Shown piece by piece: positions 1,724 to 63,049 of a stretch of 64,000 nucleotides of DNA. The stretch is from the NCBI RefSeq assembly GCF_006345805.1, contig NC_043005.1, positions 75,082,001 to 75,146,000 on the forward strand. Reading direction: 5' to 3'. Below the pieces are notes generated by a model that made no database searches, had not been told where the DNA came from, and saw only the letters and a program-made list of their open reading frames with translations. The position numbers and the translations under genes are program-made. Source of the stretch: Octopus sinensis (taxonomy: Eukaryota). How positions within the stretch are numbered: position 1 is the stretch's first letter; the number at the start of each line of letters is the position of its first letter.

Positions 1724-1887
1724 TACTTGTTATGGAGGAATCTTGGAATGTAGAAATAATACCTGCACTTGCCCTGAAGGACAGTTCCATTGCAGAAATA
1801 ATGAATGTATTGACTCTAAAAAGATGTGTGATAAACATAAAGACTGTAAAGATGGATCGGATGAGTCATTGGATATCTGCAATGAAG
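1724..1887 (+). CDS. Exon: end of a Cys-rich (VWC/TILa-like) module plus LDL-receptor class A domain
   Basis: tttcag|TACT...GAAG|gttagt; phase 2 to 1; TCYGGILECRNNTC-TCPEGQFHCRNNECIDSKKMCDKHKDCKDGSDESLDIC with the six-Cys LDLa spacing and DCxDGSDE motif. Confidence 0.93.
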
Positions 1888-8300: not shown

Positions 8301-11300
8301 ACTTCATAAATATAAGTTTTTTCTTAAAAATGCTAAGAGTAAAAGGTGTTTTACATGACACATTCTACCAGTGTCTGAAGTTTGAAAGTGCTTAGTTACA
8401 AAAAATTATTTTTTAAATCTGTAGGTCAAAAGGTAAAAATCCTGATTTTTAAAACTACCTCAGTCTTGAAAAAATTTTGAAAATTGCATATAATTCAATA
8501 AATTATTTTTTAATTTATTGAAAATTTAGTGCTTAAGATTACGTAGTGAAATAGAAAACCAGTAAATTTGTTTTAAGGAAAATAGATAATGAAAGATTTC
8601 AAAGACATTCTTTATTGTATGTAATTTTTTCAAAACTTTCTTATAAATTGTTTTGTAAAATGTTGAAATTTTGTTTTAATTTCAGAAAAACCTGTATGCA
8701 AATTCACAAATATTATGAAAGATCCTGATATTCTGCCAACAAGTGCTATTAAAGCTTCAAGTTATAACATTAATAATAAAGCAGAAGATATTCGACCTGG
8801 TGAACGGTTATGGTATTCTGCAGATAAAGACAAATTTCCACACATTACCATTGACATCTCAAATATTAATTCCCCAATGGAAAAGGTTTCTTTAGTTCGC
8901 CCTCACAATATTAAATCATTTGAAGTTCTCTTAATGAATGGAAAAAAAGTACTTAAAACATACAAGGTAACTGTTTAATTATAAAATAATACAGACACAA
9001 GCACACACACACACACACACATTTTGCCTGGCATGCTAAAGTTTCTGCCAGCTCTCCACCCTATGAATTTTAGGTAATGACCAGAAGAATATGATTGCGA
9101 ATACAGAAGGCAAAAACGGGCTTCCTCTGAAGGATCACTGGATTAAACTTACTCAACAGGGTTCATAGCCCTAAGATTAGGGAGTCTCTCCAGGTTGAGC
9201 CACTACTTCTCTGCATTGAGAGATCATAGCTCTAGTACTATAGACATATGGGGAGAATGCTGCAGAAAAAGATCACAAGACCGATTCTTCAAACTGAGAC
9301 AACTCGCAGGAGACCTAGGGGTAGACTAAGATTAAGACGGTTGGATAATATCAACCCCCAGTACTTTTCTTCTGTTTTAAGCTTGGTTCTTATTCTATCA
9401 GTCTCCTTTGCTGAACAGCCAAGTTATAGGGAAGTAAGCACACCAACACCGATTCTCAAGTAGTGGTGGGGTCAAACACAGACACTAGGAAACACACACA
9501 CATATATGATGGGCTTCTTTCAGTTTTCATCTACCAAATCTACTCACAAGGCTTTGGTCAGCCTGAGGCTATTGTAGAAGACACTTCCCCAGAGTGCTAT
9601 ATAGTGGGATTGAACTTGGAAGCATATGGTTGGGAAGCAAACTTCTTACCACATAGCCATTCCTGTGCCTATACATTCTGAGTTCAAAGGCGGCAAGCTG
9701 GCAGAAACGTTAGCAAGCCAGGCGAAATGCTTAGCGGTATTTTGTCTGCCATTACGTTCTGAGTTCAAATTCCGCCGAGGTCGACTTTGCCTTTCATCCT
9801 TTTGGGGTCGATTAAATAAGTACCAGTTACGCACTGGGGTCCATATAATCGACCTAATCCATTTGTCTGTCTTTGTTTGTCCCCTCTGTGTTTAGCCCCT
9901 TGTGGGTAGTAAAGAAATAGGTATTTACGTTCTGAGTTCAAATTTCGCTAAGGTCTTCTTTGCCTTTAATCCTTTCAGAGTCGATAAATAAGTACCAGTT
10001 GTGTACTGGGATTGATCTAATCGACTGCCCCACCTCCCCAAAACTTTTCGGGCCTCATGCCTAGAGTAGAAAAGTATACATTCTGAGTTGAGGCTGGCTT
10101 CTTCTTTTACTCTTTGCCAGACAGATGAAATAAGCATTTGAGTAGATAGAAAAGCATGACTAAATGCTTAAAGGTGGCCCATTAGCATTCCTATAGGCTG
10201 ATGATTTAAAAAAATAAACCAAAAGAATACTGAAATAATGTGAATTACTTCTTAAAATAAAATCTATTTCGTTTAATTCTTATAACTTTTAGGCTAACAC
10301 AAGACAAGGAGTAAATTTATATGATAAAACAGCAACACATATGAAGCTGAATTTATTTCCGATTGATATCAAACAATGCACTGCTACAGAAGTTTCGATT
10401 TTTGCTTGCATCAGTGAAAGTCCAAGTAAGTTAATTCATTAGGTTATTGCATTAATGGCTTAATTTCTTTTATTTCTTTTAGCAAAGCAATCCGTCATTA
10501 ACATCATAAGTAAATATCATTGCCACTGCTACCACCACCAAAACCACCACCATCTTGATCGTCATCATCATCATTATCATAATTTACACTGTTACTGAAA
10601 TAAGTAGGTAAAACTTCATTGTTTTTTTCTAAGCCAATTACAAACAGTTTGTTTCATAAATAAAAGGTCTCACATTTGGGAAGATGGTTTAGTCAATTAC
10701 ATGAGCTTCAGTACTTCATTGGAACTTTTAAGTACACAGAGAAATGAAACAAGGCTGAGTATGGTAAATTTCAAACACTGAGCATGGAGGGAGACAACTA
10801 AATACTTTGTGGCATTTTTGCATAATATTCTACAAATTCTCCAAATTTATAAACTAATGTGTAATCTTCAAAGAAGAATTTATTAGTAAAATTTCACTGT
10901 ATACATGCCTTTCTTTCTCTCTCTCTCTCAATCTTTTTTGTTTGATTGTTAATAAATGAATGAATGATAAAAGAACAGAAGTTGTATAATCACCTGTAGC
11001 TTACATCTGTTTTGGCTATATAGAAACATGCACCCTGAGCTAGGTGCCAGTGGAACATTTAATAGCTTCTTCAGAGCCAGTTATATGAAGTCTTTATTGA
11101 GGAAAGCATTTGAATATATACACACATGTATGATATTATATCATTTGTTTGTATTCATGTGCGCAATTATATATTTAAATACTTCCTCAACGAACAAAGT
11201 ATAAGACTTTACACTGGCACTTCTTGCAAAAGCTGGCTATGGCTTTCTAATCTCTGTTGAAGCTGTCCATGTCACATCTTACAGCTTTTATAGTATTCAC

Positions 11301-14300
11301 AGAGCATTGAACAGCAGTTATGATATTGGCATTTTGATACCCAGTGTGAATCATTGTCATACAGGTAGTGCTTTTCCAATATTCAGATGGCTTTCAGTTC
11401 TCCATGTCAGCTAAATTTTTCTTAGGGTCTGACAGAAACACTGTAAAGCTAAGTATTTTATGGACATGAAACTCAAAGTAACCCCATAGACCAGCCATGG
11501 CCATCTTTATCTAATTATATGTATGTATGTATGCATGCATGTATGTGTGTGTGTGTGTGCATACATAAATACATATATGCATATATACACACATAAATCA
11601 TCATCATCATAAATATATATTTACTCATACATATATCATATTTGCCTTTATATGTAGTGTCTAGTATCATCTTAGATTCAATCCATGTATATAGATGTAT
11701 TCTTTTAAAATCTAAATTAATTAATAATGTAACATTTACTTTCATTTCTTTAATAGTGACCACACCTGAGGTAACCACCATATTAACCCCAACTACATTT
11801 TTACCAACCAGTTAGTATACTTATTTATTTACTAATTGATTAAATTTTTCACATTTGATACTAAATTTATGATTTTACTATATCTAATGACTCTCATTTT
11901 GATTTGATATTGAAATACCATAAATACAAACTCAAAGTAAAAATATAATTTATTATTTTATATTTTGATTATACTGTTATATACAACTGCATCTCTATTA
12001 ATGGCACCCAAACCTGTAACAGAGACAGGAATGATACAATGAGTGAGCCTCTACACAGTCGTTCAACCTACTAGAAATAGCAGCCACCTTCCACTAAATC
12101 ACTCTGCTTTCATGAACTCTTTGTTTGTCCAGTGTATCACATATTACCCTGGCATCTATGTATCATATGATACAGATATCCAATTTTTTTTCAACCATTA
12201 GAATAACTTGGGACTTATTCAAGGAAAACATTATATTACTTAGAAGCAAGGTCAGGTTTTTCATCAGTCTGTCTCTTTACTATCTTATTATTATCTCTAA
12301 CTACCCTGTTCCATCTTTTTCCTCCTGGCTGAATTACATTTTTGTCAAATTGATCAGCATCTGCTCTGGTCACTGTCAAAGGCTATTGACATACAAAAAG
12401 TAGATTAGGCAATAAAGAAAAAAAAAAACATTGCCAATCTGTAAAATAGCACTCCACTTGATAAATCACTGCATACCAGAATTCAGTGCAGAATTAAAAT
12501 TACCATATAATATCCAAGCAGTTATATTGGTTGATATTTGCCCTGGAACTCACTATTAGGTTTGTATGTGTTTGAGTTAGACTGACTGACATTACAAAAC
12601 AAAATCCAACAAGTAGTAGATACGGTGTTAAAATCTTTTTTTTTTTTTTTTTTTTTAAATGAAACATATAAAGAATATTTTATAATTTTAACCAACGTTT
12701 CTGACAAGGAATTGAATTTCTTTTGTAGAATCATGGTGCATATTCAATGATGGTTTGGCAGATCATACTTTAATAAGGAACTCAGATATAGATTTGTCAA
12801 GCAATGACGGAAACAAAAATGTTATTCGGCCAGGAGGAAAAGGTTGGAAACCAGCAAAAGAAAATAAGAAACCATTTGTTAGCATTTTTGTTGGTGATTC
12901 TTTGAGGTATGGTGCATCTATATGTCTGGGCAAGGCTAAAGATATTAAAAGTTTTGATGTTATTCTAAGTGGAGGAGGAAACAATAAGAAATATATGGTA
13001 AGTTTGACTACTTTTTTTAATGTAGTAAAATGAATAGTTACATCATGGTAGAGTTATTCAAGCTGTTCAAATCACTTTTAACATGAAGTGTCAAAACGTC
13101 TCACACAAATACAACTTGGTCACTGATACAGTTTTCACAACAACTGTTCAAAAGCTTGATCCCTGTGGGTCTCAGCTTTTGTCTATTTTTATTTCATATA
13201 AGACTTAAGGATATATGGGTTTGCTGTGTTTATGTAAACTTTGACCTCATAACCTTGGACAATAATCTTTAGTAACTTTCAGTTTCTATTATTTTTACTA
13301 TATATATAGCATTGTGATCATTCCATTTATTCCCTTATTTCTTCTTTCTTTTCTTGAATGTTAATTTTGAATGTAATTCTTCCATGGTTGAGATTTAAAT
13401 ATTGCACTGTCAAATTTATTATTATTCTGTCCTATAATAGTCTTTACTATCTTATTATCCCTAACTACCCTGTCCCAACTTTATCATAGTGTGGAAGGCA
13501 TATTCCATCTTCATCAGTTTTTAGATGAAGAAAAGTACGTAAGCTGAATTGAAGATAACAAGTTTGGCTTTTTATTCCACCTCTCCTTTTCTGAGGATCA
13601 AACCCTGGAGCTGGCACATTACCGTACCAGCACCTGCAATTTCAACATTCAATTCAGCCTCCTGCTTCTCATCAAACTGCAGTCATCAGTTGTTAGTTGT
13701 TGGAGCACTGCATCCTTCAAAACTTCCATGCTTCCTGAGATTCGCCAACACTACACCTGATTTTCCCCTCCATACACACGCAAGCATGTATCTGACTCAT
13801 ACACTGTTCACTTCCCAGACATTTGTACATTCCTGCATATGCTTTCTACACACTTTTGACAAGTTGTGGTGCACCTGAGCACTGTATACAATAATTTCAT
13901 TATATATTTATATATATTATATATATCAGTCATGAAAACAGCCCTGAGATACTTAAACTTCTCCACTTGTATCAGTTCAAAATAATTCTAGGTGAATACA
14001 ACTAACCCACATTTCAAAGTTCAATACCGTGGGGTGGGGCGGAGAGAGAAGAAATCTAAAAACTATTAGGACTGACCTTGAGCAAACTTTTAAAAAGTTG
14101 TAATGGAACTATGCTGGTCACCAGGTCAGTTATACAATGAAAATATTTGACATGTCATGAAATAAGTTAAAAGTGAATTTAACAGTTCTGTGCACAATTA
14201 ACCCTTTAGCATTTAAATTGGCGATATCTGGCCCAAATATTCTACCTGTTTTATGTTCAAACTGCTTAGATCTGGCCTCCTACGCCTACCCTACAATGCC

Positions 14301-18973: not shown

Positions 18974-19050
<77 letters not shown>

Positions 19051-33632: not shown

Positions 33633-33698
<66 letters not shown>

Positions 33699-36677: not shown

Positions 36678-36710
<33 letters not shown>

Positions 36711-39295: not shown

Positions 39296-39343
<48 letters not shown>

Positions 39344-41385: not shown

Positions 41386-41416
<31 letters not shown>

Positions 41417-45190: not shown

Positions 45191-45229
<39 letters not shown>

Positions 45230-48200: not shown

Positions 48201-51200
48201 CCTTATACTAATTACTCAGCATCTTCTGCTGTAATAAATTCTATAATTTAAAGCTACTTTATTTTTAATTTGGTTATGTATCTAGAATAATGCAAAGGAT
48301 GATATTGTTAAGATTCCATTTGGTACAACATCAAACACAGTGAAAATCCACTTTAAAGCTATTTCACCAAATAACAGAATGGTTGTTACAGTATCTTTCA
48401 AAAGCTGTTTTGAATCACAGTGTATGTATAAAATGATTTTTTTTTCCTTGAAATTTCTTGTCATAAATCTCATAATTCTTCACAAAATTCTCCCATCTCG
48501 AGACTGTTTGAGGCAAAACAATAACAATTATGAAATGAATTATTATCATTTTCATCATCATCATCATTTAATGTCCATTGCCCATGCTGACTTGGGTTGG
48601 ACAGTTTGACCATAGCTGGCAAACAGGAAGGTTGCACCAGGCTCCTTCTGATTTGTCATGGTTCCTACAGTTGGATGCCCTTCCTAACACTAACTGCTTT
48701 ACAGAGTGTGCTGGGTGCTTCTGCATGGTACCACATGAGTGCTTTTTACATGGCACCAGGCCAACCCTCTTCACCACAGGGGTGGTGGGGCTTAACACTT
48801 CTGCTGTGGAGTACAGGTCTTCTTGAATACAAGGTGCCCAGTATCTCAGTCCTTTCTCATCTTGTCTGAATGGTTCAGTGTCCTGTGGTCGCATTTCACT
48901 AATTTGTCCCATGTCTTCCTGGGTCTCCCTTTTCCATGAGTTCCGTCTACTTTGAGAAATTGACACTTCTTTATGGAGCTATTGGCATCCATCCACATAA
49001 CATGACTAAGCCAGCACAGTCCTCTTTCTTGCACATAGTATGTAATTATAGTGAATAATACAATCATTAAACACCATGATAAATATTTCCTTAATCATTA
49101 ATCATTTGCTAACTATAATATTGGTTAACATGATTTGAAATTAATTTTGTATTTATTAATAAAAAGAACTTTCAAGTAAATATACTATTACAATAATTTT
49201 GTATGAAAATATTTCTTTTGGCTCATCATCATCATTTAAGCATCCACTTTTCCATGCTTGCATGGGTCAGAAAGAATTTGTTGAGGCAGATTTTCTAAGG
49301 CTCTAAGCCCTTCCTGTTATCAATCCTAAGATATCTCCAGAGCTGAACATGTTTACATAGAATATTGAAAATAAAGGTCACTATTTGCATAATGAGGAGA
49401 CACTAAGTCACGCACACACACACACACGTATGCATATTTATATGATGGGCTTCTTTCAGTTTCCATCTCCCAAATCTGCTCACAAGATTTTGGTCAACTT
49501 CAGGCTATGGTAGAAGACACTTGCCCAAGCTGTCACACAGTGGGACTGAACTCAGAACCAAGTGGTTGGGAAGCTGGCTTCTCAACCACATAGCCATGTC
49601 TGCAGTTGTATACTATCGTTAATTAAAATTATAAGGGAATATGTAGAATCAATTTAATCCTGTTGCTTCCATCATACATCATTAAACAATATATCATATA
49701 TACTGGAGTACAGGTCAGAATTTGAACTTTAAAATATCACCCCAAAACTAGGGGACATCTTATGTACCCTGTATAAAATCTGAACCTTAACTTCTTGTGG
49801 TTTAGAGTAGCACCAATGTCAATAGAGCACAGTGTAAAGCACTCACATAGATCCTATGGGTCTGCAGAGCAGTATTTTCTACTGATACTTGCACATATCG
49901 ATGGAGAACACGATAAAACACTCACATAGATCTTATGGTTCTACAACTCAGAACTTTCTACTGATACTTACTCGTATGTTTGGGAAGCTGGATTAATAGT
50001 AAGATTATATTAAAATAACAGCACAGAAAACTTAGCGGAAAGACACCAGTCACCATTTGCAACAGAACAGAAAATGTAAAAAATCAGCCTGGGGGCTGCT
50101 GGGAGAAACTACGGTTCACCCCTTTAGCTATGACCTGCATGCCTTCAGTACTCAAGCTATTTTCCACAGAAACTTGGGGTGATCCTATACAGCAAGTATA
50201 GCTCAAAACCCACTTTTTAGATGGAAATCCTGGTGGGGGGGGGGTCATCTTGTACACCCATTCGTATTATACCCCAGCATATACAGTATTTTATTAAAGA
50301 GTTTTCAGTATGTATTGTAGAAAATGAAAATATTTACAGATATCCAAATTGTCCAACCCATGCTAGCATGGAAAGCAGATGTTAAACAATGATGATGATG
50401 ATGATTCACTTCTTATACCTATGTAATAGCAAATCTCCTGATGTATAGTTGCAATTATTTCTTCAACTGATATATTGCTTATGTATTTTTCTTAATTTAT
50501 TGTCTGTAACATTAGTCATCAGAATATGTTTTCTTTGTTCTCATAGCAACAACACCACTACCAACAACGACTATTCCTACAACTACACTTCTGCCAACAA
50601 GTATGTAAAAGAATTCATTAATAAAACTTTGTAATACTAAAATTCAAATTTTGTTTCTCTGTGACATGTTTTAATGAAAATAGTACACAGAAAAAAAATT
50701 GTTTGCACTAAATTGTGTTTCAAATATAAAATTTATATAAAATTACTGTGATTCAAATTCAACTAATTAGTAAACAAATAGTAGTATATACTTATAGTAT
50801 GTATTAAATACAATGGAAATAGCTGTTCATGTATTTTATTGGTTGTTAACATCTACAAACAATATTTTGTGGAATAATGAATGTAAATTTCTGAACTTTA
50901 TATGATGGTGAATGAAATCTTGTTTTGTTTTGTTTTTATTTTAGCCACACTTATTCCAACAACAACACAACAAATAACAACACAAACAGGTAAAGACTCA
51001 CTTTAATGAAAATATCACTGTTGTTGGAAATCATAATACTCATGTTTAATATTGACGTTCTGCTGATCGCATTTTACTTATATTGTTTTCTAGAGTCTTG
51101 GTGTGTATTCAACGATGGTTTGGAAGATCCCTCATTAATAAGGGCCTGGGACATTAAATTGTCAAGCAATGATGAAAATCCAGATGTTATTCGCCCTGGT

Positions 51201-54200
51201 TTCAAAGGCTGGAAACCTGATGCAAGTGATAAGAAGCTCACAGTAACAATGTTTGTTGGTGATGCTTTAAGATATGGTGCATCTATTCATCTCTTACAGT
51301 CTAAATGTGTTACAAAGTTTGATGTTATTCTCAGTGGTGGAGAGAACAAGAGGTTTAAGGTGAGTTTTAATGTGTTTAGTTTGATTCAAAGATATTGGCA
51401 ATGTAGGCTTGAGAACAGGTGATGCAGGTGCCACTCTACACACACGTGCACACCCAAATTCTCATGGTGGTGGTGGGGGGTACAATGAAAACGTTCTGAA
51501 CATCCTTGTGAAAAATTAGGTTTGCATCCCTCAAGCAAATTTCATTCCCACTCTTAGATTGACAAGTTAAACTTTCTTTAAAATAAGTGTCATTATTCTA
51601 TATTGATGTGAATTTCAATGACATTTTAAAATAAATATAAATAATTATTATACAGACTTCATATGCACTTGCAGCCAACATTTTGTACACTTACACAGCT
51701 GTTGTTTATTGGCTAAGCCACATTCCTTGTTATTTTGAAATATAATTGTCAAATAACGTTCTATAAGTCTCTACTCTCTAGCTCTCCCAAAATTCATATT
51801 TTGTTAACATTTAAACAGAAAATTAAAAGACTTGCAACATATATAGATCGTTATTTCACATTCAGTAACTGATCTGCTTTTAGATAAGATCATACCACTT
51901 TTGGCAGTCAAATAGCAATGAAACTAGATCACACTAGTTTTGAAGCAAAATTGGTTAGAATAAAATATTCTTTGAAATTGATCTGATAAAACAATCATGA
52001 ACATAAAGTAGCATAAAATCACCAAGCAACAAATATGTAACAGAATTCCCAGAATTTTCAATACCAGTGAAAAAGAAAGCATTTTAAATTGTTTCACTAA
52101 GGTCAATGTATTTGTATCTTTTTCTCAGTATTGTTAAGAGAAGTAATCAAAATCTGACGTACTTTTATTTTGATGTTATCTGAATAAATACGTATGGAAA
52201 ACTTGACAATATATCATTGTAGTAAAACATTTCATTATACAAATCTCTCTGCCTTTTTCACTGTAGTAATATTTCACCATCAAAACCTACTTATCTTTCA
52301 TTTTGTTCTGTGTCTAGAATAATGCAAAGGATGATATTGTCAAAATTCCATTTGGTACGACATCAAACACAGTGAAAATCCATTTTAGAGCTGTTTCACC
52401 CAAGTGCAGAATGTTAATCACAGTATCTTTTGAAGGTTGTTTTGAATCTGCATGTAAGTACTAATCAGTTCTAGACTAAAAAATTCAAGCTTTAAACCAT
52501 TCTTCACAGTAATTACCAATCTATACACTGTTTAATTCATAATACGATTGTGCAAGTAATTATATAGAATATTGTAGTTAATAATGAATAAAGTAATCAG
52601 AGTTAATCATCATGAATATTTATTTAATCATTGAGGATCTGATGATTGTAATTTTGGTTAGCATTATATTTGGAAATAACTATGTAAATACTAATTAACA
52701 ATTAGAACTTTTAATTGAATATGTTTTTACATATGTTATGTATGAAAGTCTAAATTGATATATTTCTCCTTCTTTTATTATACAAGTTTTACCTTAAATG
52801 GTATATAATACATTGTCCTGTTTGCATCTTACAAATTCCACTCACTGATCATTAAGCAACTTTCATAATTTTTGTTTAGTATAAAATAAAGAATTAATTT
52901 TGTTGTAATATGTATGGTGATGATAATGATGTAATAATACTGATGTAAAATATTATTAGTCATGGTTGTAACTAGATGTAAGAAGACCTTTCTACTGAGA
53001 TTTAAGACCAAAATTAAATGACGACTCATAGCTCAAATCTTACAATGTGGAAAGCATATTCATTTTTGTAACAACAGATAAATTATACCAAATGACACAA
53101 AGATTCAGAACAAAGAAGATTAATCTTTTCAATGAGGGAACAATTTAATCCAATAAATTAAATAGTTGATAAGAACTAAGTTTATACAGACTTCAGTCCA
53201 AAATTTGGGAGCAGAAATTCTGCACTCAGGATAGCAAGACCATGCATGACAGAATGAATAAAAAAAATTTCGTCTTTCTATGTGGAAGAGAAAATATGTT
53301 AAAAAGATGCCCTAGGTGAAATTCGATGCATATGTATCATGCAATATGGGTTTTATATTCATTATCATATTTTAAGTGAGTTTCTATGCATGGGTGTTAT
53401 ACAACACAGATACTGACAGATGTTTGTTATATTTCATAAATAGCCACTGTATGTAAAAATAAAGTTCTAAAGTTTAAAGTCATATTTTTCTTAGTTGCAA
53501 GATTATGTGGAAATAATATTGAAGTGTTCTGATACTGAAGCATTTAGTAATACACAAGCTTTTTGTCATTAGAAATGATCAGACTGATAGCCTTTGTGTA
53601 CATTTAATTGCAACTGCCGCATGTTGGTACAAAAGTTGTTTGCTGTAGTAAAACAGAGGGATCAAGCCATGTGCAAAGAGAATGTATGGGTGTACATGAT
53701 GTATGGGTGTCTGATGGTGTGTTTGCGGTTCCTTGTCTTGACATCATGTGATAGGTGTAAAATGAATGTCACCATCTTATAAGTTAGTCATTTGTTCTAA
53801 AACTTCCATAAAACATATCCAGTCATGTGGAAATATTACAATGCTTAGAAATATGTGGGAGTTGGTGATAGGAAGAGCATTCAGCTGTAGATAATTTGGC
53901 TCAACAAATTCATTGACTCATGCAAGCATGGAAAAGTAAACATTCAAACAGAAACGTTGCACGCAAACCTATCTACTTATTGAGACAGTTATGTCACATG
54001 AGAGGTGATACATGATTGAAGTAAAGTGTTTGTAGCGATTTGTAGTAGTTGCTACACATTTCTCTTAAATCTCCAGAAATAGTTTCAACTATTTCTATAA
54101 CTGATATGATATGCTGTTTATGTGTTTCCATTCATTCCATTTCACATAACACCCATCATAACATTTTTCTTTGTTTTCATAGCAACAACACCAATACCAA

Positions 54201-57200
54201 CAACAACAATTCCTACAACCACACCTCTGCTCACAAGTAAGTGAAAATATTCATTGCTTAATATATATTAATCTCAAGGCAGAATCGTTAGCACACCTGG
54301 CAAAATGTTTCATGGCATTTCCTCTGCCTTTACGTTCTGAATTCATATTCCACCGGGGTCAACTTTGCCTTTTGTTTGTTTGAGGTCGATAAAATAAGTG
54401 CCAGTTGAGAACTGGGGTTGATTTAATCAACTTAGCCTGTGTCCCAAACCTGCTGGGCTTGTGCCAAAATTTGAAACCAATATATATTAGACCCAATAAA
54501 TATTGATTTATGATAATATATGACATTTTTTGTTTCCTTTCCATTCTAGCCACACCTATTCCAACAACAACACTGCAACCCACAACACAAACAGGTAAAG
54601 TCTTTCTCATTCAAAGAAATATTGATACTCTTGGAAATTGTAATGAGACTCATAATAATAATGGTGTTTTGCTGCTTGTTTTAACTTATTGATATTGTTT
54701 TCTAGAATCCTGGTGTGTATTCAATGATGGTTTGGAAGATGCCTCATTAATAAGGGCCTGGGGCATTAAATTGTCAAGCAATGATGAAAATCCAGATGTT
54801 ATTCGCCCTGGTTTCAAAGGCTGGAAACCTGATGCAAGTGATAAGAAGCTCACAGTAACAATGTTTGTTGGTGATGCTTTAAGATATGGTGCATCTATTC
54901 ATCTCTTACGATCTAAAGGTGTTGCAAAGTTTGATGTTATTCTCAGTGGTGGAGAGAATAAGAGATTTAAGGTGAGTTTTAATGTGTTCAATCTTTTAGA
55001 AAAGTTTATTACATCAAATCAGTTTTTGTAGCCAGTACAAGATGACACAATTATCCTGCTTTCAGCAATGAGAAACGACACACAATCACACTAATTTGGT
55101 GGTCATTTGTCAGAAAAAGACAACCACGTCACTTATGTTAACTTGTCATAAATTTGTGGTATTTTATATGATCTTACATTCATTATTTGCTTTCATGATC
55201 CTCTAATGTTAGGAAAGACTGATTACTATATAAATGAGAAAAACAATAAAGCACCTTTCACATAGCCCAGTGATTCTCAACTGGAGTCCATGTAACATTT
55301 TTCTGTTAACCCTTTAGCATTCGGATTATTCTGTCAAATGCAATGCTTATTATTTCTCATTGTTTTGAACTAATCCTATATTATCCTATAGCTTTGAGAT
55401 TTAAATGATGTGATTGTTTATTTTTAGAATGGCATTGTAAGTGAAGTGGGAGAGGCCAGATCTGGCCTGCTTGAAAGCAAAACAGGTCAGATAATTGGGC
55501 TGGATATGGCCGGTTTATGCAATAAATTGGTTATACTTGTACAATACACAAAATAGTTTAGCAATTTTTTAAATACAATTCTACACTCTCGGAGTGGTTG
55601 GCGTTAGGAAGGGCATCCAGCTGTAGAAACACTGCCAGATCTGACTGGACTGGTGCAGCTTTCGGGCTCCCCAGACCCCAGTTGAACCGTCCAACCCATG
55701 CTAGCATGGAAAGCGGACGTTAAATGATGATGATGAATTCCTAATAATATTTCATTATAAAAATATTATAATAGGATTTTATCAAACATCAACTGGTTAT
55801 GGAAATCCAGTAGAAAAAAATAGGGATCAAAGGATCCTTAGATAAAAAGTGGCTGAGATCTGTTGAAAGCAATTAGATTAAAAAATTGGGTTAAAAATAA
55901 ATTTTACAAAACCAGCAAGCAACAAGTATATTACCTGTTTACAGAATTTTCAACAGTTTAACCAGGTTTTATTTTGTTGTATTTTTATTGTTTCTTCAAA
56001 ATAATTTGTATAATCTGTTGAATGAAGCAATCAGATATAGCCTGATATGTTGTATCTCAGCACTAATTGAATCCAAATATATTAAAAGCTTAACAATAAG
56101 TCATGGAAAAACAGTCTATTATGCAAATCTCTCTATCTCTTTCACTGGAGTAATATTTTATCATCAAAACCTACCTTATCTTTCATTCTGTTGTATATCT
56201 AGAATAATGCAAAGGATGACATTGTTAAAATTCCATTTGGTACGACATCGACCTCAGTGAAAATCCACTTCAAAGCTGTCTCACCAAATCGCAGAATGCT
56301 GATCACAGTCTCTTTCAAAGGATGTTTTGAATTGCAGTGTAAGTCTGCATTGGCTTCTCTACAGTAAAATTCCTGGTCGTAAATCTCATAATTCTTTACA
56401 ATATTTACCCATTTGTTGACTGTTTAATGTAAAACAATCATGATTATAAAACAAATCGTATTGAATATTTAGAGATATTCGAATCATTATGCATGATGAT
56501 GAATATTTGCTTAATCATTGATCATTTACTGATTATAATATTAGTTACCAAGATTTTAAAATAAATTTTTGAAATATATATTAACAATAAGAATTTTCAA
56601 TTAAATATAATTTTACAAATTTTGCAAAACTAAAAATATTACTTTTCTTATTGGAATACTATTATATGAAATAACAAGAACTTTATTTTAGTTTCATTCC
56701 TACTATTAAATACTTTAAATTCTTGGATTTTGTTTTCTTATAATATAGTGTTCTGTTTGTATTTTACTCAAAATGTAAATGAAAACACAAAAATGTGTTT
56801 GTAGATAAACAATTTTCATAACTGTATGTAATATTCAAACTCCAGAGATATAGTTGCAGTTATTTCTATAAAGGGAAAAGCTGATCATTATCATCAGATT
56901 TTTTCTTTGTTCTCACAGCAACAACACCACTACCAACAACAACATTGATTCCTAGTTCTACACCTCTAGCAACAAGTATGTGATAAAATTCATTACTTCT
57001 ATAATTAAACTCAATAAAGTAATGGTTTATGTAACATTGTGAGTTGCTAAAATTGAAGAAGAATATTTTATGAAATAATGACTCTAAATTTATGAACTGT
57101 TGATGATAGCATATCTAATTGTTTTCTTTCCATTCCAGCCACAATTATTCCAACAACAACACTACAACCCACAACACAAACAGGTAAAGTCTTTCTTTTT

Positions 57201-57767
57201 CATAGAAATATCAATACTCTTGGAAATTGTAATAATATTCTTAATAATAATGGTGTTTTGTTGATTGCATCTTATTCATTGATATTGCTTTTTAGAATCC
57301 TGGTGTGTATTTAGCGATGGTTTGGAAGATCCCACATTAATAAGGGCCTGGAACATTAAATTGTCAAGCAATGATGAAAATCCAGATGATATTCGCCCTG
57401 GTTTTAAAGGATGGAAACCAGCTGCAAGTGATAATAAGCGCACAGTAACCATGTTTGTTGGTGATGCTTTAAGATATGGTGCATCTATTCATCTCTTACG
57501 ATCCAAAGGTGTTGCTAAGTTCGATGTTATTCTAAGTGGTGGAGAGAATAAGAGATTTAAGGTGAGTTCTATTTGTTGAAAAATATATTATCTCAGTAAA
57601 CTCATTATTTAAATAGATCTATTAATTATTCTATATTTCAACAAAGTTAGCTGTCATACCAGATATGGTTGTGTTTAAAACTGTCAGCCATGTAGGATAG
57701 AGAATATTTCCTCTGAATAGAAACATGGGCATGTATTTTCAACTATAGTCTTAGGATATCTATCTAT

Positions 57768-57801
<34 letters not shown>

Positions 57802-58099
57802 ATATATATATATATATATACCCTCTGGAAAAAGATGAACTGTGAACTTTATTCTCCTCTCTGTATTCTTCTATCTACTGTTACCCTTTATTCTTCTATT
57901 TTATTCCTTATAAACAGTGAATTTCCCTGTCTAGAAATTTCATAGATACTCATCTTGTCTCTGATGATGGAATACCCAGTGTATGGATATGGTGGCCTAT
58001 CACTTGGGATATCTCAGAAACAGCTTACCCTAATTAAATTATCACAAATGACTTGAGATACTCGTCCTTCCTTGGTTTTTGTTGCCCTTTTCCTCTACA

Positions 58100-58131
<32 letters not shown>

Positions 58132-58195
58132 ATATATATAACCCATGCTAGCATGGAGAACAGACGTTAAACGATGATGACGATGATGATGATGA

Positions 58196-58234
<39 letters not shown>

Positions 58235-61200
58235 ACAAATACTTTTCTCTGAAGCATACAGTTATTTAGCTCTAACACCAGGTTATTATTATCACTATGC
58301 CTAATAGAAATATTGGTTTCAAATTTTGGCACAAGTTCAGCAATATTGGGGGAGTGGGTAAGTCAGTTAGATTGATCCCCACTTATTTTATTAACTCCCA
58401 AGAACAAAAGGAAAAGTTGAGCTTTGCAGAATTTTAACTCAGAACAAGAAGACAGGCAAAATGTAGCTTAGAATTTTGCTCAGCATGCGAACAATTTTGC
58501 CTGCCCACTGTCTTGGCTAAAAATGAAATAAGGCTAATATAGGCATTTTTATTCCTAAAGATATCATTATTACCCACAACTAACTCTAAGTTGATAAAGC
58601 AATAATTTTCTTTATGTCATACTCATAAATAGCACAGATCTCTGACATAATACTGCTGTAATAATACTTTTTTAACTATGCTGTTCTCATCTCCAATTTC
58701 CTTATGTACCCAGAATAATGCAAAGGATGACATTGTTAAAATTCCATTCGGTACAACATCAAGCACAGTGAAAATCCATTTTAGAGCTGTTTCACCAAAT
58801 CGCAGAATGTTAATCACCGTATCTATTAAAGGATGTTTTGAATCATCATGTAAGTATACATTGGTTCAATACTCAAAAATATTTGGTCTAAATCTCATAA
58901 TTTTTTACAATATTTACTGACCTATAGACTGCTTGATGTAAAAGAATAATGATTATAAAGTGAATTATGTAAAATATGATAATTAATATGTAGTTATTGT
59001 ACATAATCATTCATCATTTCATGATTATAATATTAGTCATTTTTATAATTTATAATGGTTTTGGGTTCAGTGTCACAATGCTGCATCTTGAGTGTTTTCT
59101 GCTAAAGCCTCAAGCCAATCAAAGCCATGTGAGTGGATTTAATAAATGGAAAATAAAAGTTAGGAGCATATGTGTGTGTTACATTGTCATGATGTCATAT
59201 GACAGTTGCAAGTAAGCTTCATCATGCAAGTAGCATCATTAGTTTTCAGTCTTCCATGAAAACATATCCAGCCAAGCAGAATTAGAATCTTACTTTGAAA
59301 CAAGAAGTGGTTAGCTACAGGAAGAACACTCATTTATGGAAAATTTTTCTCAAAGGATTTCATTTGACCCAAAGACCTCCATTTGATCCATACAACATGG
59401 AAAAGTTGATATTAAAATGATAGCGATGATGATGATACGCTGTTGATGTGGTGTCACTCTTTCAGTTTAAAAAAAAGTACACTAGTTATCATAATATCTT
59501 TTCTTTGTTCTCATAGCGACAACTCCAGTTCCAACCACAACAATTCCTACAACCACACCTCTTCTAACCAGTAAGTGAAAATATTCATTAATTAGCATAT
59601 ATCAAGCTCGGTTAAAAAAAGTGGTTTTATGTAATATTTATGGTACAATTTAAAAGCAATTTTTTTATACACTAATAAATGTATGTCTATGAACAATGTA
59701 TGATGAATAATATATGATAATTTTTTTTTCATTTTCAATTCAGCAACACCTATTCCAACAACAACTCAGCAAATAACAACACAAACAGGTAAATTATTTC
59801 TCTTGGATAGAAGTATTACCATTCTTGAAAATTGTAATAATACTCATAAAAATAATGGTGTTTTGTTGATTGTGTTTTATTTATTGATATTATTTTCTAG
59901 AATCCTGGTGTGTATTCAATGATGGTTTGGAAGATCCATCATTAATAAGGGCCTGGAACATTAAATTGTCAAGCAATGATGAAAATCCAGATGTTATTCG
60001 CCCTGGTTTTAAAGGCTGGAAACCTGCTGCAAATGATAATAAGCGCATGGTAACAATGTTTGTTGGTGATGCTTTAAGATATGGTGCTTCTATTAATCTC
60101 TTACGATCCAAAGGTGTTGCAAAGTTTGATGTTATTCTCAGTGGTGGAGAGAATAAGAGATTTAAGGTGAGTTTAAATGAATTTAATTTTATTCTGATAA
60201 TATTATCTCAGTTGAAGCAGATCCATTGATCATTGTATATTTTTATGAATTTAGATATCATATAAAACACGTTGGTGTTGGAAACTAATTTCAAAGCCAT
60301 ATAGGACTGAGATCATGTATCATAATACAGTATGGATCTACACACACGTGCGCACGCGCGCACACACACATACACATCACCATCATCATCATCATCATCA
60401 TCTTTTAAAGTCCACTTTCCATGCTGGCATGGGTTGGGCTGTTTGACAGGAGATACCTTGCCAGAAGACTGCACTATGTTTCGCTGTCTGTTTTAACCTG
60501 GTTTTTATGGCTGGTTGCCTTTCCTAACACCAAATATGCTTTTTACATGACATTAGCACATGAAAGGTCAGTTTTTGGGCATGATTTTCACAGCTGGATT
60601 CCATTCCAAATGCTAACTAATTTACAGTGTGGACTGGATACTTTTTACATGGAATCAGCACTGGTAAGGCTGCCAAGTAACTTGGAAGACAAAGATTGGT
60701 GGAGGGGATCTTGTGCCATGTGATGAAAGGTTAGAGTTTGACACTGAGACAGAAACAGGAGTCTTGCTGTTGAGAGAGAGAGAGAGAGAGAGAGCAAGAG
60801 AAAGTAGGAAAAAGAGAGAGGGTAGCAAAGGGCCAGAGCATGCTCACAAAGAACAGGGATCAGAATATAAATGGGATGGTAGAGTAGAGCAAGGGAGAGA
60901 TAAATGGTGGCAAAGTACCAGGCTATAACCTCGGGATATGTGTGTCAGAATATAAATGGTAGGGTATTGCCAAGGGTGCGTAAATAGGGAGTAGAGACTT
61001 AACATGAATGTAAAGAGTGTGGAGTGGGGAATACAGTGACTGGTGAAACTTGGGCATATAGAAGGATGGGGGAAAACATGATAGCAATGATACAGTAAAC
61101 AAGGCAGTAAGGAGAGAATTGGGGAGCAAGAGTTAAGCATAGACATAGCATATGAACAGAGGAACACATAGTGCTTAGTGCTTCTAGAATTCAATTTTGG

Positions 61201-63049
61201 TGAAGAGAGCAGAACTTGTCAAGGACCTCATATTGCAAGACATCTTGGTGCATTGTCATCTCTTTTGTAAGGTCCAACATACTGAGATCGGTACTCACTG
61301 CTTCTCCCTATGTCTTCCTGGCTCTCTTCCACAAGTGACATCCACACACAGTGATCAGAACCTCTTTATAAAGCTGTCTTCATTTATACACATCCCATGT
61401 CCAAAACAATGTAGCCCTTCTGCTTGCATGCTGCATTTGATTCCACTTATGCCCAACTTTTCTCTCAACACATTTGCGCTTTTTCCTACATACACACTGA
61501 TGTTGCATATCCAGTGGAGCATACTATCTTCATTTTTTTCAAGGTTACGCAGGTCTTCTACATTTAGAACCCAAGTGTCACTACCATGGAGTATAACCAT
61601 TCATACACAAGCATCATTCAATCTACCTATATATATATATCATCATCACCATCATCGTTTAACGTCCGCTTTCCATGCTAACATGGGTTGGACGATTTGT
61701 CTGAGGACTGGCGAACCAGGTGGCTGCACCAGGCTCCAATCTTAATCTGGCAGTGTTTCTACAGCTGGATGCCCTTCCTCATGCCAATCACTCTGAGAGT
61801 GTAGTGGGTACTTTTGCGTGCCAGTCGGCCGGTATTGGCAACACCCACGCTCAAATGGTGTTTTTTACGTGCCACCTGCATAGGAGCCAGTCCAATATAC
61901 ATACATCAATCTTTTCATATATTTTGCTGTCATAATACATTTTCTTCTAAACTGTCACCATTTCTTTTCATATCTAGAATAATGCAAAAGATGATATTGT
62001 CAAAATTCCATTTGGTACAACATCAAACACAGTGAAAATCCACTTTAAAGCTGTTTCACCAAATCGCAGAATGTTAATCACAGTATCTTTTAATGGATGC
62101 TTTGAATCATCATGTAAGTATACGTTGGTTCAATGTCAAACAATATTTTGTCATCTAAATTTTGTGATTTTTACATTATTTATTCATCTGTAGACTGTTA
62201 GATGCAAAACAATAATAATTATAAATACGAAATATTTTTATTACGAATGTCATGTTTGGGCATAATCATTGGTCATGTGATGATTATAAATATTAGTTAT
62301 TTCTATACCTGATGTGCTGTTTATATGTTTTTATTCTTTCTATTTGACCTAACACCATTTATTATAACATTTATTTTTTGTTCTTGTAGCAACAACACCA
62401 GCTCCAACAACAATAATTCCTACGACAACACCTCTATTAACAAGTAAGTGACAATATACATTAGCTAACATATATTAAACTCATTTGTGAAAAACACTTT
62501 ATGTAACATATATAATTGTTTTTTTTAAATTGGAACACAGTACATTATGAAATAATATGCATATATTTATGAACTCTATATGTTGGATGGTAAATGAAAG
62601 TTTATTTTATTTCATTTAAATTTTAGCCACAATTATTCCAACAACAACTCAACCAATAACAACACAAACAGGTAAATTATTTCTCTTACATAGAAATATT
62701 ACCGTTCTTTAAAATTGTAATAATGTTCATGAATGTAATGATATTCTGTTGATTGTGTTTTATTCTTTGATATTATTTTCTAGAATCCTGGTGTGTATTC
62801 AACGATGGTTTGGAAGACCCCACATTAATAAGGTCCTGGAGTATTAAATTATCAAGCAATGATGAAAATCCAGATGTTATTCGCCCTGGTTTCAAAGGCT
62901 GGAAACCTGCTGCAGGTGATAATAAGCGCACAGTAACAATGTTTGTTGGTGATGCTTTAAGATATGGTGCATCTATTCATCTCTTGCGATCCAAAGGTGT
63001 TGCAAAGTTCGATGTTTTCCTCAGTAGTGGAGAGAATAAGAGATTTAAG
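1724..63049 (+). CDS. Partial (5' and 3' open) multi-exon gene: LDLa plus 18 tandem F5/8C/discoidin-like domains with Thr/Pro linkers; mucin/SCO-spondin/hemocytin-like giant extracellular protein
   Basis: 66 exons, each with a pyrimidine-tract/AG acceptor and GT donor. Phases chain consistently and the summed length 8770 nt = 1 + 2923 codons. The domain pattern C..G.ED...I....I..SS.......IRPG..GW.P...(beta strands)...V.V.F.GC matches the FA58C outline by eye. Confidence 0.88.
3535..3576 (+). CDS. 42-nt linker exon (ESISAKAPNYQRPK)
   Basis: Long pyrimidine tract ttttag|AATCC...CTAAAG|gtttgt; phase 1-1, open frame. Confidence 0.7.
3840..4407 (+). mobile_element. RTE-LINE-related 3' end / SINE family 3 with (GAT)n tail
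   Basis: Recurrent motif ggaagggcatccagctgtagaaac...agcatggaaaacagacgttaaacgatgatgat; copies near 19680, 24260, 28000, 48555, 55580 and 61640. Confidence 0.65.
4815..5568 (-). mobile_element. Three head-to-tail family-2 SINE copies separated by (TAC)/(TAG)/(TAA) microsatellites
   Basis: ggcacaag..aaattttgggg..gaaaggcaaagt..atttgaactcagaatgta..ctaagcatttc repeated at about 4815, 5071 and 5357. Confidence 0.75.
6562..7013. mobile_element. piggyBac-type (TTAA) MITE with an internal insertion
   Basis: ttaa|cccttt ... aaaggg|ctaa; body is the reverse complement of 44761-44956. Confidence 0.65.
7819..8442. mobile_element. Foldback non-autonomous DNA transposon with long inverted arms, a degenerate TTAGGG core and an 8-bp TSD
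   Basis: ggatctttaccttttgacctacagattt ... aaatctgtaggtcaaaaggtaaaaatcc; tgattttt at 7811-7818 and 8443-8450. Confidence 0.85.
8686..8966 (+). CDS. Exon A0: N-terminal part of divergent discoidin-like domain D0
   Basis: ttcag|AAAAA...TACAAG|gtaact; KPVCKFTNIMKDPDILPTSAIKASS..DIRPGERLWYS..ITIDI; homologous to the later A exons. Confidence 0.88.
9370..9670 (-). mobile_element. SINE family 1 (diverged)
   Basis: Reverse-complement similarity to 1153-1557. Confidence 0.65.
9689..10074 (+). mobile_element. SINE family 2: full copy plus an adjacent 5'-truncated copy
   Basis: ggcggcaagctggcagaaacgttagc head; second body begins tacgttctgagttcaaat at about 9926. Confidence 0.75.
10293..10425 (+). CDS. 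Exon B0: C-terminal part of D0
   Basis: ttttag|GCT...CCAA|gtaagt; 133 nt, phase 0 to 1; ANTRQGVNLYDKTATHMKLNLFPIDIKQCTATEVSIFACISESP. Confidence 0.85.
11757..11810 (+). CDS. Thr/Pro microexon (54 nt, xTTPEVTTILTPTTFLPT)
   Basis: taatag|TG...ACCA|gttagt; phase 1-1. Confidence 0.78.
12729..12997 (+). CDS. Exon A1 (269 nt), domain D1
   Basis: tgtag|AATCATGG...TATATG|gtaagt; SWCIFNDGLADHTLIRNSDIDLSS..KKYM. Confidence 0.9.
14202..14417. mobile_element. piggyBac-type MITE (second family)
   Basis: ttaa|ccctttagcatt ... aatgtaaaggg|ttaa; inverted relative at about 55310-55530. Confidence 0.75.
15834..15969 (+). CDS. Exon B1 (136 nt)
   Basis: ttccag|GCA...CTAA|gtaagt; ANLKGSVVKIPFGTTSTTVKISFKGVAGDCDMAVTVSLKGCFESL. 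Confidence 0.9.
15990..16362 (-). mobile_element. SINE family 1 (diverged)
   Basis: Reverse-complement similarity to 1153-1557. Confidence 0.65.
16648..16822 (+). pseudogene. Decayed partial repeat unit: degenerate microexon, short intron and first ~20 nt of an A exon
   Basis: Paralogous to 17637-17820: ttttagCT.., atgatgtttaaaaggcact, aaatttcttctgtagAATCTTGGTG, after which homology stops. Confidence 0.6.
16970..17405 (+). mobile_element. Degenerate RTE-clade LINE 3' fragment
   Basis: Remnant peptides VLLYGAETW, RKKWKWIG and ALQWNPDGYRRRGRPKNLW, with stops and frameshifts. Confidence 0.7.
17637..17684 (+). CDS. Thr/Pro microexon (48 nt, xTTPLPTSTVQPTTAT)
   Basis: ttttag|CT...ACAG|gtatga; phase 1-1. 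Confidence 0.85.
17797..18065 (+). CDS. Exon A2 (269 nt)
   Basis: ctgtag|AGTCTTGG...TTCAAG|gtgagt; paralog of A1. Confidence 0.9.
18976..19043. repeat. (TA)n microsatellite, one of many TA/CA/CT/CAT tracts
   Basis: Direct reading; similar tracts at 2130, 33600, 39290, 57770, 58100 and 63260. Confidence 0.95.
19256..19391 (+). CDS. Exon B2 (136 nt)
   Basis: tacag|GCA...CGAT|gtaagt; ANMKDSVVKIPFGTTSSTIKIYLQGVPGDCDMAVTVSIKGCFESR. Confidence 0.9.
20491..20538 (+). CDS. Thr/Pro microexon (48 nt, xTTPLPTTTAQHTTAT)
   Basis: ttttag|CT...ACAG|gtataa. Confidence 0.83.
20651..20919 (+). CDS. Exon A3 (269 nt)
   Basis: ctgtag|AG...CAAG|gtaagt; nearly identical to A2. Confidence 0.9.
22120..23035 (+). 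mobile_element. LINE (RTE-like) AP-endonuclease fragment; ORF 22120-22977
   Basis: EEP motifs LNIGTL, CCLQEVRW, IYAPQ, VAGDFNGHVG and QSDYIL; ends with stops and has no RT. Confidence 0.88.
23126..23261 (+). CDS. Exon B3 (136 nt)
   Basis: tatag|GCT...CGAT|gtaagt; same peptide as B2. Confidence 0.9.
23616..23663 (+). CDS. Thr/Pro microexon (48 nt)
   Basis: tttag|CT...ACAG|gtatga. Confidence 0.85.
23776..24044 (+). CDS. Exon A4 (269 nt)
   Basis: tgtag|AG...TACATG|gtgagt. Confidence 0.9.
24908..25043 (+). CDS. Exon B4 (136 nt)
   Basis: atccag|GTA...CGAT|gtaagt; VNLKDSVVKIPFGTTSTTVKISFKGVAGDCDMAVTVSIKGCFESR. Confidence 0.9.
25643..25687 (+). CDS. Thr/Pro microexon M2 type (45 nt, xTPIPTTTLRPTTQT)
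   Basis: tttcag|CC...ACAG|gtaaac. Confidence 0.86.
25796..26061 (+). CDS. Exon A5 (266 nt, second subfamily)
   Basis: tctag|AATCCTGG...TTTAAG|gtgaga; SWCVFNDGLEDASFIRAWDIKLSS..NNRFK. Confidence 0.9.
27745..27880 (+). CDS. Exon B5 (136 nt)
   Basis: atccag|AAC...AGGT|gtaagt; NIEKDAVVKIPFGTTSDTVKIHFVSDSPNCKMIVTVSFKGCFESR. Confidence 0.9.
28670..28723 (+). CDS. Microexon M1 (54 nt, xTTPVPTTILPTTTPLPT)
   Basis: atatag|CA...ACAA|gtaagt. Confidence 0.86.
28885..28929 (+). CDS. Microexon M2 (45 nt)
   Basis: cttag|CC...ACTG|gtaaga. Confidence 0.86.
29059..29324 (+). CDS. Exon A6 (266 nt)
   Basis: tctag|AA...TAAG|gtgagt. Confidence 0.9.
30125..30690 (-). mobile_element. CR1/L2-like LINE 3' fragment
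   Basis: Minus ORF 30272-30529 (LFKLHLSNTHGHVYKVRKQHSSHDIRKHFFMLRVAEVWNKL) and a (TAT)n tail. Confidence 0.7.
30888..31023 (+). CDS. Exon B6 (136 nt)
   Basis: atccag|AAC...AGGT|gtaagt. Confidence 0.9.
31585..31638 (+). CDS. Microexon M1 (54 nt)
   Basis: catag|CA...ACAA|gtaagt. Confidence 0.86.
31799..31843 (+). CDS. Microexon M2 (45 nt)
   Basis: tttcag|CC...ACAG|gtaaac. Confidence 0.86.
31952..32217 (+). CDS. Exon A7 (266 nt)
   Basis: tctag|AA...TAAG|gtgagt. Confidence 0.9.
33128..33263 (+). CDS. Exon B7 (136 nt)
   Basis: atccag|AAT...GGGT|gtaagt. Confidence 0.9.
33440..33912 (+). mobile_element. SINE family 1 insertion unique to unit D7
   Basis: Matches 1153-1557; absent at the paralogous position after B8 and B9. 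Confidence 0.8.
34304..34357 (+). CDS. Microexon M1 (54 nt)
   Basis: catag|CA...ACAA|gtaagt. Confidence 0.86.
34553..34597 (+). CDS. Microexon M2 (45 nt)
   Basis: tttcag|CC...ACAG|gtaaac. Confidence 0.86.
34706..34971 (+). CDS. Exon A8 (266 nt)
   Basis: tctag|AA...TAAG|gtgagt. Confidence 0.9.
35912..36047 (+). CDS. Exon B8 (136 nt)
   Basis: atccag|AAC...GGGT|gtaagt. Confidence 0.9.
36590..36643 (+). CDS. Microexon M1 (54 nt)
   Basis: catag|CA...ACAA|gtaagt. Confidence 0.86.
36868..37049. mobile_element. MITE-like element with perfect 26-bp inverted repeats
   Basis: gagtggttgtgtaaagtcaacataac (36868-36893) / gttatgttgactttacacaaccactc (37024-37049). Confidence 0.75.
37136..37180 (+). CDS. 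Microexon M2 (45 nt)
   Basis: tttag|CC...ACAG|gtaaac. Confidence 0.86.
37293..37558 (+). CDS. Exon A9 (266 nt)
   Basis: tctag|AA...TAAG|gtgagt. Confidence 0.9.
38503..38638 (+). CDS. Exon B9 (136 nt)
   Basis: atccag|AAC...GGGT|gtaagt. Confidence 0.9.
39209..39262 (+). CDS. Microexon M1 (54 nt)
   Basis: atatag|CC...ACAA|gtaagt. Confidence 0.86.
39498..39542 (+). CDS. Microexon M2 (45 nt)
   Basis: tttcag|CC...ACAG|gtaaac. Confidence 0.86.
39656..39921 (+). CDS. Exon A10 (266 nt)
   Basis: tctag|AA...TAAG|gtgagt. Confidence 0.9.
40377..40512 (+). CDS. Exon B10 (136 nt)
   Basis: atccag|AAC...AGGT|gtaagt. Confidence 0.9.
41056..41112 (+). CDS. Microexon M1 (57 nt)
   Basis: catag|CA...ACAA|gtacgt; one extra Thr codon. 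Confidence 0.82.
41170..41545 (-). mobile_element. SINE family 1
   Basis: Reverse complement of the 45018-45448 type. Confidence 0.8.
41652..41696 (+). CDS. Microexon M2 (45 nt)
   Basis: tttag|CC...ACAG|gtaaag. Confidence 0.86.
41816..42081 (+). CDS. Exon A11 (266 nt)
   Basis: tctag|AA...TAAG|gtgagt. Confidence 0.9.
42640..42868. repeat. Interspersed repeat with terminal hairpin (possibly Helitron/Helentron-like non-autonomous)
   Basis: tacctctgcc-ttcgctaa-ggtggaggta stem-loop at about 42839-42866; GC-richer than the flanks; family assignment is a guess. Confidence 0.35.
43139..43274 (+). CDS. Exon B11 (136 nt)
   Basis: atctag|AAT...GCAT|gtaagt; NNAKDAVVKIPFGTTANTVKIDFKGVSPNCKMIVTVSFKGCFESA. 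Confidence 0.9.
44562..44618 (+). CDS. Microexon M1 (57 nt)
   Basis: catag|CA...ACAA|gtatgt. Confidence 0.84.
44761..44956. mobile_element. piggyBac-type MITE
   Basis: ttaa|ccctttc ... gaaaggg|ttaa, intact TTAA on both sides. Confidence 0.8.
45018..45448 (+). mobile_element. SINE family 1 (young, CpG-rich copy)
   Basis: ggcgcaggagtggctgtgtggtaagtagc ... gaaacaagtaaaagagtaaaagag. Confidence 0.85.
45641..45685 (+). CDS. Microexon M2 (45 nt)
   Basis: tttag|CC...ACAG|gtaaag. Confidence 0.86.
45800..46065 (+). CDS. Exon A12 (266 nt)
   Basis: tctag|AA...TAAG|gtgaga. Confidence 0.9.
48286..48421 (+). CDS. Exon B12 (136 nt)
   Basis: atctag|AAT...CAGT|gtatgt; NNAKDDIVKIPFGTTSNTVKIHFKAISPNNRMVVTVSFKSCFESQ. 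Confidence 0.88.
49694..50286. mobile_element. Degenerate TA-flanked (Tc1/mariner-pogo-like) MITE with an internal ~55-bp duplication
   Basis: Imperfect termini catatatactggagta / taccccagcatatacag; cactcacatagatc.tatgg.tct repeated at about 49840 and 49920. Confidence 0.45.
50547..50600 (+). CDS. Microexon M1 (54 nt)
   Basis: catag|CA...ACAA|gtatgt. Confidence 0.85.
50945..50989 (+). CDS. Microexon M2 (45 nt)
   Basis: tttag|CC...ACAG|gtaaag. Confidence 0.85.
51094..51359 (+). CDS. Exon A13 (266 nt)
   Basis: tctag|AG...TAAG|gtgagt. Confidence 0.9.
52318..52453 (+). CDS. Exon B13 (136 nt)
   Basis: gtctag|AAT...GCAT|gtaagt; ..HFRAVSPKCRMLITVSFEGCFESA. Confidence 0.9.
54183..54236 (+). CDS. 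Microexon M1 (54 nt)
   Basis: catag|CA...ACAA|gtaagt. Confidence 0.86.
54550..54594 (+). CDS. Microexon M2 (45 nt)
   Basis: tctag|CC...ACAG|gtaaag. Confidence 0.86.
54706..54971 (+). CDS. Exon A14 (266 nt)
   Basis: tctag|AA...TAAG|gtgagt. Confidence 0.9.
56203..56338 (+). CDS. Exon B14 (136 nt)
   Basis: atctag|AAT...CAGT|gtaagt. Confidence 0.9.
56919..56975 (+). CDS. Microexon M1 (57 nt)
   Basis: cacag|CA...ACAA|gtatgt. Confidence 0.84.
57139..57183 (+). CDS. Microexon M2 (45 nt)
   Basis: tccag|CC...ACAG|gtaaag. Confidence 0.86.
57296..57561 (+). CDS. Exon A15 (266 nt)
   Basis: tttag|AA...TAAG|gtgagt. Confidence 0.9.
58714..58849 (+). CDS. Exon B15 (136 nt)
   Basis: acccag|AAT...TCAT|gtaagt. 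Confidence 0.9.
59517..59570 (+). CDS. Microexon M1 (54 nt)
   Basis: catag|CG...ACCA|gtaagt. Confidence 0.86.
59744..59788 (+). CDS. Microexon M2 (45 nt)
   Basis: ttcag|CA...ACAG|gtaaat. Confidence 0.86.
59901..60166 (+). CDS. Exon A16 (266 nt)
   Basis: tctag|AA...TAAG|gtgagt. Confidence 0.9.
60390..61890 (-). mobile_element. Cluster of RTE-LINE/SINE-3 remnants
   Basis: Minus-strand remnant ILHGSDTWVLNVEDLRNLEKNEDSMLHWICNIS; (CAT)n tails at about 60380 and 61640. Confidence 0.6.
61978..62113 (+). CDS. Exon B16 (136 nt)
   Basis: atctag|AAT...TCAT|gtaagt. Confidence 0.9.
62390..62443 (+). CDS. Microexon M1 (54 nt)
   Basis: tgtag|CA...ACAA|gtaagt. Confidence 0.86.
62627..62671 (+). CDS. Microexon M2 (45 nt)
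   Basis: tttag|CC...ACAG|gtaaat. Confidence 0.86.
62784..63049 (+). CDS. Exon A17 (266 nt); its B exon is expected beyond the window
   Basis: tctag|AA...TAAG|gtgagt. Confidence 0.9.

Follow-up and report, generated by a model that had tools for sequence, protein, structure and literature searches.

A long tandem array of compact discoidin-like domains in a probable mucin-like gene of Octopus sinensis

The Octopus sinensis contig NC_043005.1 (assembly GCF_006345805.1) contains, between positions 75,082,001 and 75,146,000, an exon chain for a giant protein in which a folded domain is repeated in tandem between short Thr/Pro linkers; this stretch of 64,000 nucleotides is here called the window. 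With moderate confidence, the window is read as the repetitive centre of a very large glycoprotein, secreted and polymeric, that belongs to the lophotrochozoan gel-forming mucin/SCO-spondin-like group. The exon chain, the repeat and the purifying selection are observed, whereas the discoidin fold is predicted, for a close homologue. A preliminary description of the same DNA missed that the window probably holds only the middle of a mucin extending from VWD domains to a cystine knot. The protein class itself is already known, and what is new is the unusually long central array of a Pfam-invisible discoidin domain in a mucin/SCO-spondin-like chain. The middles of invertebrate mucins are repetitive and break assemblies, which makes annotation difficult. 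A predicted fold and a working profile are now available for a module that occupies such unannotated middles in at least six lophotrochozoan genera, among them the source of a protein already recovered from limpet adhesive mucus.

Exon chain and repeat units

The window DNA is animal, with a GC content of about 33% and many interspersed repeats. Exons were located by motifs and splice sites and then joined by their coordinates, which rebuilt 65 exons on the forward strand between positions 1724 and 63049, amounting to 8,728 nt and 2,909 residues. The large phase-consistent chain of the preliminary description was thereby upheld, but not its counts of 66 exons and about 2920 residues. AG precedes and GT follows every one of the 65 exons, and the spliced chain has no stop in the open frame as against 306 and 145 in the other two. 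The junctions are supported by reading frame, by splice sites and by a database homologue that runs through them without a break.

The chain comprises one LDLa exon, 18 A exons (264–281 nt class), 17 B exons (133–136 nt) and 29 linker exons (45–57 nt), the linker exons being without exception phase 1-1. Units 0–16 are complete, each of 133–137 residues, and in each of these 17 a phase 0 intron separates the A exon from the B exon. Scanning all six frames with the profile gave 18 A and 17 B pieces on the forward strand and, on the reverse strand, a single noise match of −0.1 bits. Hence the 18 recurrences originally claimed hold for the A exons but not for complete units, as unit 17 is represented by its A exon alone. 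The missing B exon is expected beyond the window, since the window ends 951 nt further on and A-to-B introns measure 455–2,836 nt. A scan for extra exons in seven intervals (both flanks and five early introns, of 64 introns in all) gave three candidates, none of them Thr/Pro-rich, and the 66th exon was not recovered in these intervals.

Apart from a divergent unit 0, the complete units fall into three blocks (Table 1) with internal identities of 85–99% (I), 94–99% (II) and 81–92% (III); Block I is 58–64% identical to the later blocks. The repeat motif first quoted for the domain fits units 5–10; unit 0 is just 22–31% identical to the remaining window units. Unit 0 aligns with the family profile in hhalign (99.4%, E 3e-21, with a profile that includes its own exon). 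A profile built from Patella only matches all 18 window positions, several of them at decoy level only, and gives its best score, 33.5 bits, to unit 0 (decoys ≤3.6).

The repeats are real and under purifying selection. The mean ratio of non-synonymous to synonymous substitution rates (dN/dS) is 0.22, 0.22 and 0.23 within blocks I, II and III (6, 15 and 15 non-independent pairs) and 0.33 between blocks II and III. Block II contains the most recent duplications, introns included, such as a 2.4 kb genomic duplicate (34468–36807 and 37051–39424) that is 92% identical. Across the 30 longest genomic duplicates, again with introns, identity is 77–94%, which fits tandem exon-cassette duplication better than assembly error.

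The 16 linkers that follow units 1–16 are 15–34 residues long, as described before, with 52–56% Thr+Ser and 12–24% Pro. Cysteines stand at both domain ends in 23 of 23 octopus units, and among the rows of alignment A3 with a residue at the position, the first is present in 25 of 25 and the last in 18 of 19. Within the loop that precedes the final strand, a third cysteine occurs in 13 of the 17 window units (it is lost in units 12, 14, 15 and 16) and in all six complete units of Octopus bimaculoides; 11 of the 17 window units have an odd cysteine count. Units 1 and 13 (exons at 12729 and 51094) have a fourth cysteine, which in unit 13 may pair with the third and which has a counterpart at the same place in relatives P0006 and P0008.

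Compact discoidin-like fold and its relatives

The unit is a compact discoidin/F5-8C-like fold on structure prediction: a jelly-roll beta-sandwich, superimposable on solved F5/8C domains, was predicted for a close homologue, in agreement with a call first made by eye. Identity to neuropilin b1/b2, factor V/VIII C, DDR discoidin and CBM32 domains is 13–19%, and these carriers have one or two copies each. The window unit is about 20–25 residues shorter than animal F5/8C domains, again as first described, with loops that look shortened; those that contact the ligand in known F5/8C domains seem 5–9 residues shorter here in alignments with E values of only 0.18–0.29. The suspicion that automated annotation may miss the gene also proved sound, as the eight unit exons tested gave no domain-relevant Pfam match. 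PF00754 did not reach its gathering score, with no match for these eight exons or for the O. bimaculoides model P0001, and it matched one of 37 members of alignment A3 (E 0.01); its best score among relatives was 22.1 bits against a cut-off of 28.2. Mucin2_WxxW matched none of the units.

A database search with exon A returned one protein among 78 candidates, O. bimaculoides A0A0L8GSU4, which is 71% identical and has six units followed by TSP1, TIL and VWC domains. An octopus-only profile then picked out, at E≤0.001, 69 of 1.84 billion proteins; 20 of the 69 were looked up by cluster. These include mucin-2-like proteins of Lineus longissimus (13 units interspersed with LDLa repeats, after three VWD and three C8 domains), Liolophura sinensis (7 units) and Mytilus californianus (11–12 units, then TSP1), together with an uncharacterised Tubulanus protein (7–8 units). 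A wider profile adds a Patella vulgata mucin-2-like protein (7 units) and pedal mucus protein 6 (6 units). Whole-protein scores are inflated by repeats, and the test was therefore made on single domains, with reversed and shuffled sequences as decoys. With the five animal rows left out of the profile, the best domains reached 24–72 bits and the decoys at most 8; three suspected false matches stayed below 4 bits.

On profile evidence, limpets, mussels, chitons and ribbon worms also have mucin-like proteins with repeats of this overlooked domain, and by unit count the window's array is the longest among the relatives found. The preliminary description had proposed a lineage-specific expansion, but a design peculiar to this lineage is not supported: five further genera of Lophotrochozoa have arrays of 6–13 copies separated by Thr/Ser/Pro linkers. 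The arrays themselves appear to have been amplified or homogenised separately, as median unit identity between genera is 14–28% and units resemble one another much more closely inside one protein or genus.

Some of the relatives have features of their own. The O. bimaculoides models P0001, P0003 and P0004 (6, 4 and 7 units) are forms of one gene model that differ by whole cassettes, which may reflect cassette skipping or model error. P0025 and P0029 (LOC128251500 and LOC106867630) of the same species have more divergent domain copies beside Thr-rich sequence, and octopus may have several genes of this sort. In Lineus longissimus P0005, a second Cys-bounded module of about 145 residues lies between units (~1505–1650 and its repeats); neither the family profile nor Pfam matches it, and it may be another discoidin-like subtype.

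A proposed polymeric mucin and its alternatives

Lang et al. (2016, PMC4948705) describe the F5_F8 domain as a hallmark of lophotrochozoan mucin-like proteins and place some invertebrate mucins nearest to SCO-spondin. As in the proteins described there, F5/8C-type domains lie mid-chain beside Thr/Ser/Pro-rich sequence, and a VWD head and Cys-rich tail are found, here in relatives. Unlike those Pfam-annotated domains, the 133-residue unit escapes PF00754 and is present as a tandem array of 18 or more. The passages of that paper covered here, section 15 among them, make no mention of such arrays, supplementary figure S4 lying outside the comparison. A full-text literature search, with most subscription journals outside its reach, found no description of the compact subfamily or its arrays, and the word 'discoidin' is absent from the available part of PMC10475054.

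The guess of a mucus or adhesive protein gains support from Patella vulgata pedal mucus protein 6 (A0A7D5H9V0), in which the domain occurs six times, separated by Thr/Ser/Pro linkers, and whose presence in mucus is shown by Kang et al. (2020, PMC7333891). The annotation given there consists of four TSP1 domains and a cystine knot only. The protein's TSP1-rich tail follows the units and aligns to the O. bimaculoides tail (E 2e-33). Unlike those of the window, its units are acidic, of two alternating types, with two cysteines and about 17% identity to the window's. The sequence looks 5'-truncated, as it begins inside a unit. SCO-spondin-like proteins have been reported from octopus skin mucus (PMC10138644 and PMC11431876).

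In the proposed polymer, a VWD-C8-TIL head would lie N-terminally, upstream of the window, and a TSP1/TIL/VWC/cystine-knot tail downstream, as judged from relatives. VWC is present in P0001, whose end resembles a cystine knot by eye only, and a relative, P0066, gives a DAN match (E 4.5e-6). Head and tail would polymerise chains end to end through disulfides, as in other gel-forming mucins. Each Thr/Pro linker would be O-glycosylated to give a short, stiff, hydrated spacer, and each compact disulfide-closed beta-sandwich would act as a proteolysis-resistant bead. The beads may make weak, many-fold contacts with other chains or surfaces, in a role like that of CysD in the proline/threonine/serine-rich (PTS) regions of vertebrate mucins, and duplication of the phase 1-1 exon cassette would provide more of them. 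CysD modules of MUC2/MUC5 are likewise folded modules repeated within Thr/Pro-rich mucin regions (PMC6861317 and PMC4948705) and have been proposed to be weak cross-linkers (PMC6861317). CysD has a different fold, and the suggested likeness is one of position only. As the 133-residue unit is predicted to fold independently, questions of gelling and sticking (self-association, glycan binding, thiol cross-links) become directly testable.

Several points weigh against a gel-forming mucin. Both protein ends fall outside the window, and the fold prediction was made on a close homologue and not on a window unit. The O. bimaculoides units form a block of their own, 54–66% identical to window units 1–16, and hence the protein may not be the 3' part of the gene but a paralogue; two further O. 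bimaculoides loci that carry the domain weaken that assignment again. With about 80% of modelled residues in folded domains, there is no long PTS region. In the part of PMC10138644 available, none of 14 search strings for unit, LDLa and tail peptides (two of which spanned trypsin sites) occurred in the 3,654 peptide-spectrum match rows listed for O. vulgaris skin mucus, which tempers the mucus guess. No exon–exon joint was found among 15 listed of 674 read joints, these 15 being repeat artefacts, and none of the listed sequencing runs is on record as RNA.

An unlikely alternative is a protein of the hemolectin/hemocytin kind that serves as a multivalent lectin or immune trap; its beads would bind microbe or cell glycans or lipids, and avidity would matter more than gel structure. 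The hemolectin/hemocytin plan has 3+2 VWD domains, two of them after F5/8C, and VWD found no match in the tail of the O. bimaculoides homologue, itself a possible paralogue. SCO-spondin has a single F5/8C domain, and it and insect hemolectin/hemocytin have one or two, as against 18 or more here.

Rather less probable is a fibre or extracellular matrix protein of SCO-spondin-like type in an internal tissue (neural, cartilage or egg coat), outside surface mucus. The domain order speaks for it, since LDLa, then F5/8C-like domains, then TSP1/TIL/VWC in the homologue, is the order of vertebrate SCO-spondin. The LDLa that precedes the F5/8C region, a SCO-spondin trait, is present as one repeat in the window; the earlier placing of LDLa upstream of the repeats was correct (PF00057, E 7.9e-10, 39.2 bits), and the Cys-rich tail in the same exon matches TILa weakly (E 0.11). 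The lack of peptides among the listed skin-mucus rows also fits an internal protein, and a 204-residue O. vulgaris cluster member that covers the tail only is named SCO-spondin in the database, although this name is automatic annotation. Against it, the sole relative with protein-level evidence comes from limpet pedal mucus, and three named multi-copy relatives of the first look-up are annotated as mucin-2-like. An assembly artefact or decayed repeat, not expressed as a gene, is very improbable despite 98–99% protein identity between some adjacent units and the lack of an RNA junction among the joints listed, as the long genomic duplicates diverge, frame and splice sites are kept throughout, dN/dS is 0.22, and a DNA run that may be from the source sample covers introns in contigs of ≤1.5 kb at an even depth of 41–59.

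A more speculative and rather doubtful proposal casts the compact discoidin unit as a functional counterpart of CysD that has gone unrecognised: a cross-linker in the mucus and glues of molluscs and ribbon worms, amplified independently by each lineage. The third cysteine, gained in octopus, would then supply a row of free thiols for covalent side-by-side cross-links, and whole-cassette exon skipping would tune bead number.

Feature positions and other elements of the window

Table 1. Positions of the modelled features in the window
Feature	Position	Strand	Description
LDLa exon	1724..1887	+	Phase 1-1; Cys-rich tail of an upstream module (TILa/VWC-like, weak), then one LDLa
Unit 0	8686..10425	+	Divergent first discoidin-like domain; exon A 8686-8966, exon B 10293-10425
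First Thr/Pro linker exon	11757..11810	+	18 codons, phase 1-1
Block I, units 1-4	12729..25043	+	134 residues per unit; single linker exon separates units
Block II, units 5-10	25643..40512	+	133 residues per unit; mostly two linker exons separate units
Block III, units 11-16	41056..62113	+	Two linker exons separate units
Final stretch	62390..63049	+	Linker exons 62390-62443 and 62627-62671; unit 17 exon A 62784-63049

Very high-copy interspersed repeats occupy introns, for example at 19764–20427, 23748–24411, 29724–31051 and 33044–34371, and dominate read mapping over the gene. In the A–B intron of unit 3, 286 stop-free codons (22117–22977, forward strand) resemble, by eye, the endonuclease domain of a LINE retrotransposon. 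Nested inverted repeats lie at 6673–8566, with outer arms at 6673–6808 and 8443–8566. Their inner foldback (7819–8048 and 8212–8442, 89–95% complementary) encloses a telomere-like TTAGGG-rich patch at 8118–8197, and the whole looks like a non-autonomous element nested in another.
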